Shown here one piece after another: positions 30,995-33,702 of a stretch of 64,000 bases of DNA. The position numbers and the translations under genes are program-made. Origin of the DNA: Giesbergeria sp. Lineage in GTDB: Bacteria > Pseudomonadota > Gammaproteobacteria > Burkholderiales > Burkholderiaceae_C. Position 1 is the first letter of the stretch; every line of letters starts with the position of its first letter. The stretch is taken from assembly GCA_023150295.1 (NCBI GenBank), contig JAKLLE010000007.1, forward strand, positions 14,460 to 78,459. The letters are read 5' to 3'. The notes under the pieces are model-generated. The model saw nothing but the letters and a program-made list of their open reading frames with translations, was not told the origin of the DNA and made no database searches.

Positions 30995-31638
30995 GGCTGG
31001 CCGGGTCTCGCCCCGGCGGGCGACTCACTTTCTTTCGCTTCGCCGAAAGAAAGTGAGCAAAGAAAGGGCGACCCTGCTGCCCGTGACCCCCACGCTGCGC
31101 GCGGGGGCAGCCTGCGATGCCCGTTCGCGGGGCGTGCTGCGGAACTCACGGCGCGCCTGCGGCGCTTCGTTCGGACAACCGCAGCAAGTCAGACCACAAA
31201 GGCGTGTGTCCTGCGGCACACGCCCGCCCAACGCCCTGCGCTTTTCGGCACGGGCAAAAGGGCTTGGCAGATTCCGTGCCACCGCTGCGCTCGGCCTGGC
31301 ATGCGTGGCGCGCAGCGCCTGCGCCCCGCGGGGCCGAGCGCAGCGATGGCCCGTGTTCTTTTCACCCCCTTCTGGCTGCGCCTGCGGCGGGGCGCTTGCG
31401 GGGTGGGCATGCGCGTCGCAGCGCGCATGCTTCGTCATCTGACTCGCCGGGGTTGTCCGAACGAAGCTGCGCAGCAGCGCAGTGAGTTCCACGGCGCACC
31501 CTGCAAACGCCCCGACGCAGGTTTGCCCCTTCGCACCGCGAAGGGGTCGCAGACTGCAGGGTCGCCTTTCTTTTGGGTACTTTTCTTTGGCGAAGCAAAG
31601 AAAAGTACCTCGCCCGCCGGGGCGAGACCCGGCCAGCC
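30995..31638. mobile_element. 644-bp non-coding palindromic (MITE-like) element
   Basis: Perfect 29-bp terminal inverted repeat (30995-31023 / 31610-31638); roughly 260-bp imperfect inverted arms; central hairpin; no transposase. Confidence 0.7.
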
Positions 31639-31723: not shown

Positions 31724-32594
31724 ATCGATAAACCGAAGGCTCCCCCTCAGGCCGCGTCTTGAACCGCTTGTGCACCCAGTAGTACTGCCCCGGCATGGTG
31801 AGAATGGCGGCCTCCAGCTCTCGGTTCATGCGCGCGGTGTCGGCCTGTACGTCCTCGGTGGGGAAATCCGCCCAGGCGGGGGTGAGCTCGGCGACATAGC
31901 CCGTGGGCGTCATGCGTGTGTACATGCCCAGCACCTTGGCACGGCCCAGGCGGGCAAAGCGCGAGAGCGACGGCACGGTGGCCGTGGGCACACCAAAAAA
32001 GGGCGCAAAGATCGACTCCCCAGGGCCGAAATCCATGTCGGGCAGCAGGTAGAGCAAGCCCCCCTTGCGCAGGTTGGAAAGGATGGGCTTGACCCCATCG
32101 GCCCGGTTGAGCATGCGCACATCGCCAAAACGCTGGCGCCCGGCCATGAACCAGGCGTCCACGGCCGGGTCGGGGTGGGTGGAAAAAATCGAGGTGAACG
32201 CGCGCTGCGTGCGCAGCGGCAGCGCCAGGCCGCCTGCGTCCATGCCATAAAAATGCGGCGCGAAGATGATGGTGGGCGTATCGCCGTCGAGCTCGTGCAG
32301 CGCGCCCACCAGTTGCACACGTTGCTCGACCACCGCACGCGGCGCGGCCCACAGCCAGCTGCGGTCCAGCCAGGTTTGGCAGAACACCACGAACGTCTCG
32401 CGCGCCCAGGCCTTGCGCTGCGCAGCCGTTGCCTGCGGAAAGCACAGCTCCAGGTTGCGCAGCGCCACGCGCCTGCGCGGTGCTGCCAGCACAAACAACA
32501 CCCTGCCAATGGCCCAGCCCAAGGCGCGCAGCACCGGCAGCGGCAGGCGTGCCAGCACCCGCTGCATGAACCCAACACCCATGCGCGCGATCAT
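31722..32594 (-). CDS. Lipid A biosynthesis acyltransferase (LpxL/HtrB family), paralogue 1
   Basis: HFYGMD catalytic HxxxxD, LLPDMD, QYYWVHKRFKT. Confidence 0.9.
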   Translation of the reverse strand: MIARMGVGFMQRVLARLPLPVLRALGWAIGRVLFVLAAPRRRVALRNLELCFPQATAAQRKAWARETFVVFCQTWLDRSWLWAAPRAVVEQRVQLVGALHELDGDTPTIIFAPHFYGMDAGGLALPLRTQRAFTSIFSTHPDPAVDAWFMAGRQRFGDVRMLNRADGVKPILSNLRKGGLLYLLPDMDFGPGESIFAPFFGVPTATVPSLSRFARLGRAKVLGMYTRMTPTGYVAELTPAWADFPTEDVQADTARMNRELEAAILTMPGQYYWVHKRFKTRPEGEPSVYR

Positions 32595-32724
32595 TGGATA
32601 ACCTCCGTGCTGCGCACTGCGGTGCGAGCTTGCTTGGGAGCGGCCCGGCGCGCGCTCATTGAAAAACCTCCGTGCTGCGCACTGCGGTGCGAGCTTGCTT
32701 GGGAACGGCCCGGCGCGCGCTCAT
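32591..32724 (-). repeat. Tandem 65-bp-period repeat encoding two chained 22-aa mini-ORFs
   Basis: 32600-32659 equals 32665-32724 with one mismatch. Minus-strand ORFs 32724-32656 (MSARRAVPKQARTAVRSTEVFQ) and 32659-32591 (MSARRAAPKQARTAVRSTEVIQ), joined by ATGA overlaps. Confidence 0.85.
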
Positions 32725-33569
32725 GCGCCCCCTCCGGCCTGTGGCATGGGGCGCGGCTGCTTGTAGCGCGCATAGCCCCACAGGTACTGCTGTGGGCACT
32801 GGCGAATGGTCTGTTCCATGGCCAGGTTGATTTGTTGCACAGCCAGCTCCAGCACGTCAGACAGAGGTGCGGCCAGTTCCTCCAGGTACAGGCAATAGCC
32901 CCGGCCCCAGGGCTCACGCTCGCAGCGCGCCAGCACCACGGCAGCGCCTGTCTGCTGCGCCAGGCGTGCTGCCAGCGTCATGGTGTAGGCGCTGCGCCCG
33001 AAGAACGGTGCCCACAGGCCCTGCCCGTCGGGCGGCACCTGGTCGGGCAGCAGGCCCACGGCCTCGCCCCGGCGCAAGGCCTTGATCATCTGGCGCACGC
33101 CCATCAGCTCGGTGGGCACGGCCTGCACGCCGGGGCGGTTGCGTGCGGTGCGCATCACCTCGGCCAGCCAGGGCTGGCGCGCCGGGCGGTACAGGATGGT
33201 GATGGGGCCGTGTGCGGCGCTCCAGCGCTGGGCGGCGGCCTGCACCGACATCTCGAAGCACCCCAGGTGCGGTGTGAGGAACACGATGCCCTTGCCCGCC
33301 GCCCAGGCGCGCTCGACGCATTCGGTATTCTCGAATCGGCACACCGGCAGTGCGCCCAGCCAGAGCCGGGGCAGCTCGGCCACCATGCGCCCGGCATGGG
33401 CCACGGCAGCACGCACCTGCGCGAAGCGGTAGCCCGCCAACTGCGCATTGGCCAGAAAGCGCCGCCGGTAGGTCGGCGATGCGCAGAACGCCACCCAGCC
33501 CAGGGCAGCGCCCAGACCGTGCAGCAGCCACAGTGGCCACAGGGGCAAAAATCGCAAGAGGAAAGACAT
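32721..33569 (-). CDS. Lipid A biosynthesis acyltransferase (LpxL/HtrB family), paralogue 2
   Basis: HLGCFE HxxxxE, LLPDQVP, QYLWGYARYK. Confidence 0.9.
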   Translation of the reverse strand: MSFLLRFLPLWPLWLLHGLGAALGWVAFCASPTYRRRFLANAQLAGYRFAQVRAAVAHAGRMVAELPRLWLGALPVCRFENTECVERAWAAGKGIVFLTPHLGCFEMSVQAAAQRWSAAHGPITILYRPARQPWLAEVMRTARNRPGVQAVPTELMGVRQMIKALRRGEAVGLLPDQVPPDGQGLWAPFFGRSAYTMTLAARLAQQTGAAVVLARCEREPWGRGYCLYLEELAAPLSDVLELAVQQINLAMEQTIRQCPQQYLWGYARYKQPRPMPQAGGGA

Positions 33570-33584
33570 TAAAATGGAATGACA

Positions 33585-33640
33585 GTCGCTGAGTTAACCG
33601 AGCAACTTGCAGGGCGACGATAAACAAATCTGCTAAAGCG
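33585..33640 (+). promoter_or_regulatory. SAM-II riboswitch upstream of metK
   Basis: GTCGC(T)-GAGTTAACCG...TTGCA-GG-GCGAC-GATAAA...TGCTAAAGCG follows the SAM-II motif order (P1 33585-33589 / 33614-33618) and precedes a SAM synthetase. Confidence 0.8.
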
Positions 33641-33702
33641 TTCGCCAAGGCTCCAGCGGCCAGGGCAACGCCCAAGACAACGCAACACTGGAGTTTATTC
33701 AA

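Follow-up and report, generated by a model that had tools for sequence, protein, structure and literature searches.

How can a repeat settle between two genes that share the bases of their stop and start codons, and leave this arrangement intact? The question is raised by a stretch of 64,000 nt from Giesbergeria sp. (assembly GCA_023150295.1, contig JAKLLE010000007.1, positions 14,460 to 78,459), hereafter the window, where two units of a 65-bp repeat separate two genes of the LpxL acyltransferase family on the minus strand. A prediction made from the letters of the window had proposed that the units act as a translational-coupling relay and belong to a small mobile or REP-like element inserting at ATGA stop/start overlaps. 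The relay repeat is a real feature and the idea behind this original prediction is essentially right. Our data make it likely that the units belong to a family dispersed between cistrons in Burkholderiales, chiefly Comamonadaceae, which combines the architecture of the mycobacterial MIRU repeats with a sequence related to BRE (Beta-proteobacterial repeat element).

The upstream acyltransferase gene ends with ...GGC GCA TGA, whereby the TGA (32723-32721) overlaps the ATG (32724-32722) of a 22-codon open reading frame (ORF A, MSARRAVPKQARTAVRSTEVFQ*). The stop codon of ORF A overlaps in the same ATGA manner with the start of a second 22-codon ORF (ORF B, MSARRAAPKQARTAVRSTEVIQ*), and a third ATGA joins the stop of ORF B to the start of the second acyltransferase gene. 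Both small ORFs comprise 69 nt. The final ATG (32594) opens the downstream gene of 290 aa, in agreement with the ORF table. A GGAGG is located 7 nt 5' of the next ATG in each unit, and a third one lies within the upstream gene, 6 nt 5' of the first ATG. Tandem Repeats Finder reports the repeat at 32583-32724 with a period of 65, 2.2 copies, 94% matches and a score of 256, by far the strongest tandem repeat of the window. It extends 8-9 nt into the downstream gene (ATGAkCGCGCGC). Units A and B differ at 3 of 65 positions, all three being non-synonymous in the small ORF. Sequence and ORF list thus bear out the chain of ATGA overlaps and 22-codon ORFs, the 65-bp period and the GGAGG before the next ATG as originally described.

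Within the window the repeat is restricted to this junction. A 60-nt unit pattern and the 24-nt core give two matches each if up to 3 mismatches are allowed, where shuffles expect none, and an nhmmer profile of the family likewise recovers just these two copies. A search of Rfam with the units gave no match at E values up to 1, and no terminator-like site was found on the gene strand at the junction.

Orthologous acyltransferase loci were fetched and their junctions were read (L numbers denote loci, identities are those of the downstream protein). Close relatives with 97-99% protein identity carry either two units (L001, L002, L005) or one unit (L003, L004). A 91% relative (L018) carries two units, with TTGA as its third junction. 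A bare 4-nt ATGA overlap preceded by GGAGG is found in L017 and L006-L015 (93, 89, 87, 83 and 82%), and the junction of such empty-site relatives reads ...ccGGAGGtgccgcATGA. Filled junctions are longer by 65 or 130 nt, exactly at the overlap. This comparison shows the bare ATGA to be the ancestral state, with the insertion having occurred in the source lineage; a single ATGA in relatives without the insertion is what the original prediction had expected. Since the uninserted relatives have a GGAGG at the equivalent place, the GGAGG at 32731-32735 is probably the original ribosome-binding site of the downstream gene. The second unit at this locus likely arose from the first by local duplication.

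Two of these loci show peculiarities of their own. In L017 the downstream protein is 93% identical to that of the window, yet the upstream gene and the junction are almost exactly those of the 87% relative L010; L017 represents a natural recombinant or else an assembly chimera. In L018 (1266-1399) the downstream gene starts with TTGAGCGCGCGCC, with the second codon of the unit in place of the ancestral ACG. This is suggestive of a gene conversion involving the gene start and the last unit.

A second, independent pair of filled and empty sites was found beside the acyltransferase pair. Variovorax paradoxus NBRC 15149 harbours one unit flanked by the genes of a FecCD permease and an ABC ATPase. 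In relatives with an ATPase identity of 93% or 87% the junction is gtggcATGAGC with a 4-nt overlap, and the filled site is longer by exactly 65 nt. At the same junction a 94% Variovorax relative carries a 26-nt remnant, ATGAGCGCAGCGCCAAGGGTGCATCA, followed by ATGA (L260:1475-1504). The remnant is a 9-codon ORF running from ATGA to ATGA, with a peptide unrelated to that of the unit, and its 5' end resembles another subfamily than the NBRC 15149 unit. As far as these sequences can tell, the junction may have been hit twice, with the target site being reused. A plasmid search with two annotated loci yielded no further orthologous empty site.

To what extent is the unit dispersed? Copies were collected via the exact 24-mer GCACCGCAGTGCGCAGCACGGAGG, and family counts are those among the matches listed. 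The 24-mer is present in at least 119 reference-genome stretches and at least 120 metagenome stretches. Among the matches listed are 257 unique copies, mostly from Comamonadaceae and related Burkholderiales; the genera include Variovorax, Rhodoferax, Hydrogenophaga, Curvibacter, Acidovorax, Alicycliphilus, Simplicispira, Melaminivora, Ramlibacter, Hylemonella, Pseudorhodoferax, Rubrivivax, Aquabacterium and Zoogloea, and several genomes have more than one locus. The 24-nt core is near-identical between genera. A unit of the window type, identical over 59 nt, is located between unrelated genes in other genera, e.g. in Alicycliphilus denitrificans (L074). No copies were found in viral contigs and phage records. 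In four community data sets the units have 5-25x the contig depth of their flanks, and contigs with different flanks connect at the units, which is the pattern to be expected of a multi-copy family. Both genes and the units are covered by contigs of one metatranscriptome. These read-derived data consist of assembled contigs, which break at the repeat.

Nearly all aligned copies are built as NTGAGC ... GGAGG, 7 nt, NTGA. The 5' end of the 257 listed copies reads ATGAGC in 207 and GTGAGC in 13 cases, with ATG as 5' codon in 92%, while the 3' start codon is ATG in ~65%, GTG in 20% and TTG in 5%. The gap from GGAGG to the start codon measures 7 nt in 206 of the 257. Two unit lengths prevail: 65 nt (69 nt if the shared 4 nt are counted, 108 copies) and 62 nt (66 nt, 85 copies). 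Length plus 4 is divisible by 3 in 202 of 230 units, as expected of coding sequence. A profile built from the units detected 323 copies in the 1.68 Mb fetched, which make up 244 unique arrays, of which 199 hold one unit, 35 two, 5 three and 5 four. Of 20 other clusters of orthologous sites, 3 also vary in copy number.

Some arrays deviate from the relay design. The periods of L250 (63-nt spacing) and L252 (60-nt spacing) are divisible by 3; at the L250 junction, CTGATG, the frame continues from unit to unit, making a repeat polypeptide possible, and the units of L252 are wholly devoid of ATGA (AATTCGCC). In L140, L194, L204 and others, units of 85-96 nt contain an extra GC-rich hairpin inside hairpin 1, reminiscent of the ~90-bp BRE of Bordetella.

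Full-ended arrays show NTGA at their start in 194/209 and at their end in 191/209 cases (~93%). We assessed the coding status of the flanks from the phase of codon-position GC (GC3) together with an open frame of 80 codons. By this measure, 149 of 196 upstream flanks code on the strand of the element and in a frame that stops at its first TGA, and 154 of 195 downstream flanks code in the frame set by its last start codon. For about three quarters an in-frame position between two co-directional genes is thereby demonstrated. Flanks coding on the reverse strand are rare (14 upstream, 6 downstream). Mechanical tracing of ORFs through 165 arrays gave an unbroken chain of stop/start overlaps ending exactly at a long ORF for 145 (88%); 15 more reach the long ORF via extra small ORFs and 5 break. 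The deposited annotation of a 2.48-Mb Variovorax paradoxus replicon and of the Diaphorobacter IncP plasmid pDCB2 agrees: in both, the upstream coding sequence ends on the first ATGA and the downstream one starts 65 nt on, at the second ATGA. Taken together, the counts at both ends, the co-directional in-frame flanks and the two annotated replicons confirm the proposed enrichment of other copies at ATGA junctions. The coupling geometry, which the element was thought to preserve, is kept in 88-97% of arrays, in the frame-keeping unit lengths and even in the remnant.

The ends of the element were characterised in 172 arrays. The upstream flank shows a GGAGG-like sequence at -12..-8 and a C at -1 in 78%; GC directly follows the 3' NTGA in 58%. 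Beyond this GC, the similarity of the flanks to their own unit does not exceed that to other units, hence the resemblance of the window unit to the start of its downstream gene is not a rule of the family. TGA is always common to both ends, sometimes TGAGC, and the preceding base is A in 92% at the 5' end and 65% at the 3' end. As the 5' codon is nearly always ATG and the 3' start codon is variable, the element probably supplies its own ATG and the 3' start codon is that of the resident gene. Insertion at the overlap holds as originally proposed; the duplicated part, which had been taken to be ATGA, looks like TGA or TGAGC and is not strictly ATGA. The ends of the consensus, TGAGCGCC... and ...GGAGGTTnCCnA, are not complementary. 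There are thus no terminal inverted repeats as found in miniature inverted-repeat transposable elements.

Conservation of secondary structure was evaluated on 88 units of the 62-nt class by testing three helices: GAGCNNC...GNNGCTC, an inner CGG/CCG and GTGC-GCA-GCAC just before GGAGG. Pairing is observed in 89.9% of cells. Changes on both sides of a pair account for 64 cells, compared to 19 +/- 3 in shuffles (none of 500 reaches 64) and 2-6 in controls with slid partners. Pairs 7-27 and 8-26 alternate between C-G, G-C, A-U and U-A. The 65-nt types covary as well, GGG/CCC being replaced by GAA/TTC in 6-7 copies and C-G by U-A in the long outer stem. Hairpin 2 occurs in the compensated variants GCCC-GCA-GGGC and GCGC-GCA-GCGC, while the middle base of its loop is free to vary. 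An alternative hairpin 2, CGCAC-CGCA-GTGCG, suggested by RNAalifold for the 65-nt set, was rejected, as these two variants compensate GTGC-GCA-GCAC only. In the window, the minimum-free-energy fold of unit A reproduces the family structure, and its hairpin 1 pairs are all invariant across 9 window-like copies; the fold of unit B on its own favours another pairing than the family hairpin 1.

The compensatory changes have consequences for the peptide. Stem changes alter residues 2-10 (SAARPPEGA, SPARPPEGA, SLARPPEEA), and the variant GCCC-GCA-GGGC turns TAVRSTEV into TAARRAKV with the stem intact. Since compensatory hairpin changes alter the peptide, the constraint acts on frame and nucleic-acid structure and not on the amino-acid sequence. 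In 14 orthologous pairs the flanking genes are 91.7% identical and the unit part not used for retrieval 95.8% (Fisher p = 0.002), with 89.8% for the 7-nt spacer. The lower divergence of the unit part relative to the flanking genes indicates that inserted copies are either under some constraint or homogenised by gene conversion. The features at the junction are compiled in Table 1.

Table 1. Features of the repeat-bearing junction between the two acyltransferase genes (window coordinates).
Feature	Position	Strand	Basis
Upstream LpxL-family acyltransferase gene, 282 aa; its stop TGA forms the first relay junction	32721..33569	-	ORF list, NF006487, PF03279
GGAGG in the 3' end of the upstream gene	32731..32735	-	Sequence; empty-site relatives; GGAGG-like at -12..-8 in family upstream flanks
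First ATGA: upstream gene stop and ORF A start	32721..32724	-	Sequence
Unit A with 22-codon ORF A	32656..32724	-	ORF list, Tandem Repeats Finder, nhmmer family profile (E = 1.3e-18)
Hairpin 1 of unit A: outer GAGC/GCTC, GC/GC, inner GGG-CCGTT-CCC	32691..32722	-	Minimum-free-energy fold; covariation of the corresponding stems across the family
Hairpin 2 of unit A: GTGC-GCA-GCAC, immediately preceding the ribosome-binding site	32672..32682	-	Covariation, fold, pairing-keeping variants
GGAGG of unit A, 7 nt 5' of the unit B ATG	32667..32671	-	Sequence
Second ATGA: ORF A stop and ORF B start	32656..32659	-	Sequence
Unit B with 22-codon ORF B	32591..32659	-	ORF list, Tandem Repeats Finder, nhmmer (E = 3.3e-18)
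Hairpin 1 region of unit B	32626..32657	-	Register with unit A, same alignment columns; family homology
Hairpin 2 of unit B (GTGC-GCA-GCAC)	32607..32617	-	Family alignment and covariation
GGAGG of unit B, 7 nt 5' of the downstream gene ATG	32602..32606	-	Sequence
Third ATGA: ORF B stop and downstream gene start	32591..32594	-	Sequence, ORF list
Downstream LpxL-family acyltransferase gene, 290 aa	31722..32594	-	PF03279 (185 bits); NCBIfam; homologue names

Based on this anatomy we propose the following way of working. A unit consists of an NTGA start overlapping the preceding stop, an ORF of 21-22 codons running through two hairpins, a GGAGG, a 7-nt spacer and the next NTGA. The element would have entered the ancestral ATGA overlap between the two LpxL-family genes and is now present in two tandem copies. 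By analogy with termination-reinitiation at -4 overlaps as reviewed in PMC12548453, a ribosome terminating at the upstream UGA would re-initiate on the overlapping AUG, read 21-22 codons while melting both hairpins, stop at the next UGA, re-initiate again and finally enter the downstream gene. The GGAGG of each unit could also recruit ribosomes directly. In this manner an insertion would keep the downstream gene translated and coupled to the upstream gene, which would explain why copies persist in exactly such frame and position. Copy number presumably shifts by unequal recombination between units, in the way of a variable-number tandem repeat, and each added unit may cost efficiency, so that copy number could serve as a tuning knob.

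Several points weigh against this explanation. The passage of ribosomes is deduced from geometry, and mobility from the distribution of copies and two comparisons of filled and empty sites. No transposase turned up, albeit no search was aimed at one, and there are neither terminal inverted repeats nor a clear fixed target duplication. Shuffled sequence reaches equally good predicted folding energies (z from +1.5 to -1.4), leaving covariation to carry the case for structure. The frames of the flanks derive from the heuristic of GC3 phase and open frame, with real gene calls in few cases, and retrieval by an exact 24-mer favours well-kept copies, such that decayed copies may lack the architecture. 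Finally, a divergence slower than that of the flanks points to host-level constraint or gene conversion beyond mere harmlessness.

An alternative is that the hairpins themselves are the function and the ORF is secondary. The unit would then be a domesticated cis-acting RNA module in operons that sets the relative output of two neighbours, be it as an RNase processing or stabiliser site, as a protein-binding site or as a structure masking the ribosome-binding site. The compensatory changes in two hairpins, the near-identical core and the 5' part of the unit, which at orthologous sites has roughly half the divergence rate of the genes around it, all speak for it, as do predicted folds that pair near hairpin 2 up to the first G's of CGGAGG. 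Stem mismatches of the G.T kind outnumber A.C ones (17 vs 8), which hints at the sense strand, but the difference is not significant (p = 0.11). Moreover such a function leaves the frame-keeping length, the NTGA at both ends and the unbroken ORF chain in ~90% of arrays unexplained, the locus of close relatives works without the element, and there is no match to an Rfam family. We therefore regard it as rather doubtful that the hairpins are the primary function; the idea is compatible with the relay and not opposed to it. A related extension of the relay family, which we put forward as tentative and slightly less doubtful, is that the family is active, that the insertion machinery itself recognises stop/start overlaps (ribosome-binding site, 6-7 nt, NTGA, often GC), with selection not acting as the sole filter, and that hosts co-opt the element as a 'bicistronic design' module, in which hairpins and unit number set the share of translation passed on from the upstream gene. 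If true, it would be a mobile, copy-number-tunable regulator of within-operon protein ratios, and this would explain both the 24-nt core kept across genera and the slower evolution of inserted copies compared to neighbour genes.

As for the mode of spread, a single-stranded DNA transposase of the IS200/IS605 or RAYT kind might act in trans on a hairpin-bearing, non-autonomous element with a TGA-containing target, selection keeping the insertions at stop/start overlaps. Asymmetric ends with two hairpins in place of terminal inverted repeats would fit, and so would the triloop of hairpin 2, a G-N-A closed by C-G of which GCA, GAA, GTA and GGA are all found, the precise insertion beside a fixed short sequence with no long duplication, and the 5' NTGA that is almost always ATGA next to a varying 3' start, as if the element brought one copy of the motif. 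However, no such gene was seen (again, no search was aimed at one), the arrays are direct tandems and not the inverted pairs typical of REP doublets, a GTAG-type head is missing, and no copies were found in viral contigs and phage records; strict frame and gene-strand bias require selection anyway. We consider this route unlikely. Still far less probable is that the 22-codon ORFs are real small-protein genes with a basic micropeptide as the selected product, another suggestion of the original prediction. Most copies do have an open ORF, a strong ribosome-binding site and a start codon, and share ARTAVRSTEV in the C-terminal half. But this half coincides with hairpin 2 and the ribosome-binding site, compensatory changes and the hairpin-2 variant rewrite the peptide while keeping the stems, every difference between the two window units is non-synonymous, and the 26-nt remnant encodes an unrelated 9-residue peptide with its ATGA-to-ATGA frame intact. 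A purely local tandem duplication of the junction region, finally, would make the unit no member of a dispersed family at all. The first 12-13 nt of the unit indeed resemble the start of the downstream gene (ATGAGCGCGCGCC vs ATGACGGCGCGCC in relatives), and a weak, collinear similarity between the unit and the upstream gene's 3' end was seen (p 0 to 0.06 in 3 of 6 comparisons). This similarity is inconsistent, the downstream flanks of the 172 arrays are unlike their own unit past the first two bases, and the 59-nt identity between unrelated genes in other genera together with hundreds of related copies refutes a local origin of the unit, to which we give practically no weight.

In the window the units lie between the genes of two paralogous proteins. 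Both carry the Pfam domain PF03279 (Lip_A_acyltrans), with 185 bits for the downstream protein, and they are 28% identical to each other. The upstream protein exceeds the cut-off of NCBIfam NF006487 (325 vs 281 bits). The best NCBIfam matches of the downstream protein are models of lipid A lauroyl acyltransferases, below their cut-offs, and its homologues from Giesbergeria and other Comamonadaceae are named KDO2-lipid IV(A) lauroyltransferase. On account of the shared domain and the paralogy, a description as two LpxL-family late acyltransferase genes seems reasonable.

Two further features lie close by. A foldback of ~640 bp (window 30995-31638) is flanked by an alpha/beta-hydrolase gene on one side and by the 3' end of the downstream acyltransferase gene on the other. 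The arms measure 115 nt (78% complementary), 80 nt (79%) and 22 nt (91%), with a perfect 14-nt hairpin in each outer arm. The same-lineage loci L001-L005 and L018 contain the foldback as well, a related copy is found in the metagenome locus L227, and relatives at 89% identity or less lack it, with a gap of ~38 nt in its place. On the plus strand, the metK leader (window 33575-33657) shows a weak match to the alpha-proteobacterial S-adenosylmethionine (SAM) riboswitch RF00521 (21 bits vs a gathering score of 36, E = 0.16), which may be due to chance or represent a divergent SAM-binding leader.

What would such a relay mean? At the acyltransferase locus, one or two units could shift the ratio of two lipid A late acyltransferases and hence lipid A acylation. 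With many copies in culturable genera (Variovorax, Acidovorax, Alicycliphilus, Rhodoferax, Hydrogenophaga), the family offers a tractable system for termination-reinitiation, for the cost per relay step and for how an element finds stop/start overlaps. For annotation, seemingly 'intergenic' gaps of 61 nt would have to be read as mini-cistrons. The arrays could moreover serve as variable-number typing markers for wastewater and soil Comamonadaceae. In our literature search, neither the core DNA string nor the peptide string appeared in any paper found, and no paper was found describing the coupling architecture in Betaproteobacteria.

REP, BIME and REPIN elements usually follow a stop codon, lie in both orientations, often form inverted pairs and are associated with RAYT transposases; they have no ORF, ribosome-binding site or stop/start overlap. 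Like these elements of Enterobacteria and Pseudomonas, the present family consists of short GC-rich hairpin repeats that are transcribed in operons and may alter the expression of neighbours. Unlike them, it was seen as direct tandem arrays only, with the strand fixed relative to the genes and no inverted pairs. The term 'REP-like' of the original prediction is therefore apt for the conserved hairpins and fails for pairing and orientation. REP-like stability was also rejected, since neither the region nor single units are predicted to fold better than shuffles.

Rickettsia palindromic elements and other translated repeats survive by an open frame; they insert in frame within protein genes, so that the repeat ends up in the protein itself (PMC3184786). 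The present family shares the survival by keeping the frame open but constitutes a separate mini-cistron between genes. Synthetic 'bicistronic design' cassettes, in which a leader ORF with an embedded ribosome-binding site ends in a stop overlapping the gene start, by which the ribosome is delivered and structure is melted (PMC12548453), are engineered, unlike the natural, repeated and presumably mobile units described here.

With regard to sequence, the closest known element appears to be BRE, found in Bordetella and Comamonadaceae with 29 copies in Polaromonas sp. (Hot et al. 2011, PMC3110155). BRE occur in tandem with little or no spacing and in variable copy number, and some overlap ORF ends by few bases; those of Bordetella are 75-91 bp long with an extra GCCCCCC-TCG-GGGGGGC hairpin, end T-runs and no ATGA, also lie between convergent genes and were studied as the small RNA BprJ, with no function assigned (PMC3110155). 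A term search of the main text of that paper gave no mention of a small ORF, a stop/start overlap or coupling. In pairwise local alignments of our units with Bordetella BRE, several pairs reach z of 4-7.7 compared to shuffles, and the blocks CGCCGGrCCGtCCCAAG and CAAGCTCGCAC..GCGCAGC are common to both; with the nhmmer family profile, Bordetella BRE units score no better than shuffles. The family thus appears related to BRE in sequence, and would belong to the BRE family or neighbour it. Head-to-tail tandem arrays of variable copy number in Comamonadaceae are a common trait. Unlike full BRE (75-91 bp) the units are 62/65 nt long, apart from the few variants of 85-96 nt, and match the partial forms of 40-60 bp in the paper. 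For the previously unexplained BRE, the relay offers a functional interpretation.

With regard to architecture, the counterpart is the MIRU. MIRUs are 40-100 bp long and thought to be tolerated since coupling is kept (Supply et al. 1997; summaries in PMC12548453 and PMC3184786). They appear to insert at start codons and to couple the MIRU ORF at -4 nt, by which effects on expression are limited (PMC12548453), and show filled and empty sites, tetranucleotide direct repeats and ORF ends overlapping the neighbours (PMC3184786). The likeness is close: both are short, dispersed in-operon repeats in gene direction, often in tandem with variable copy number, each unit with a small ORF overlapping the stop and start of its neighbours (-4 nt), and filled and empty sites, of which we have two loci, differ by the element with a short repeat on either side. 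The present family differs in having two clearly covarying hairpins, a near-invariant 24-nt core across genera and units of 62/65 nt. It moreover resides in Betaproteobacteria as opposed to Actinomycetota, so that a relation in sequence is not expected. MIRUs have so far been the standard example of a repeat that inhabits operon junctions and keeps coupling; a second family in another phylum would make this a general strategy.

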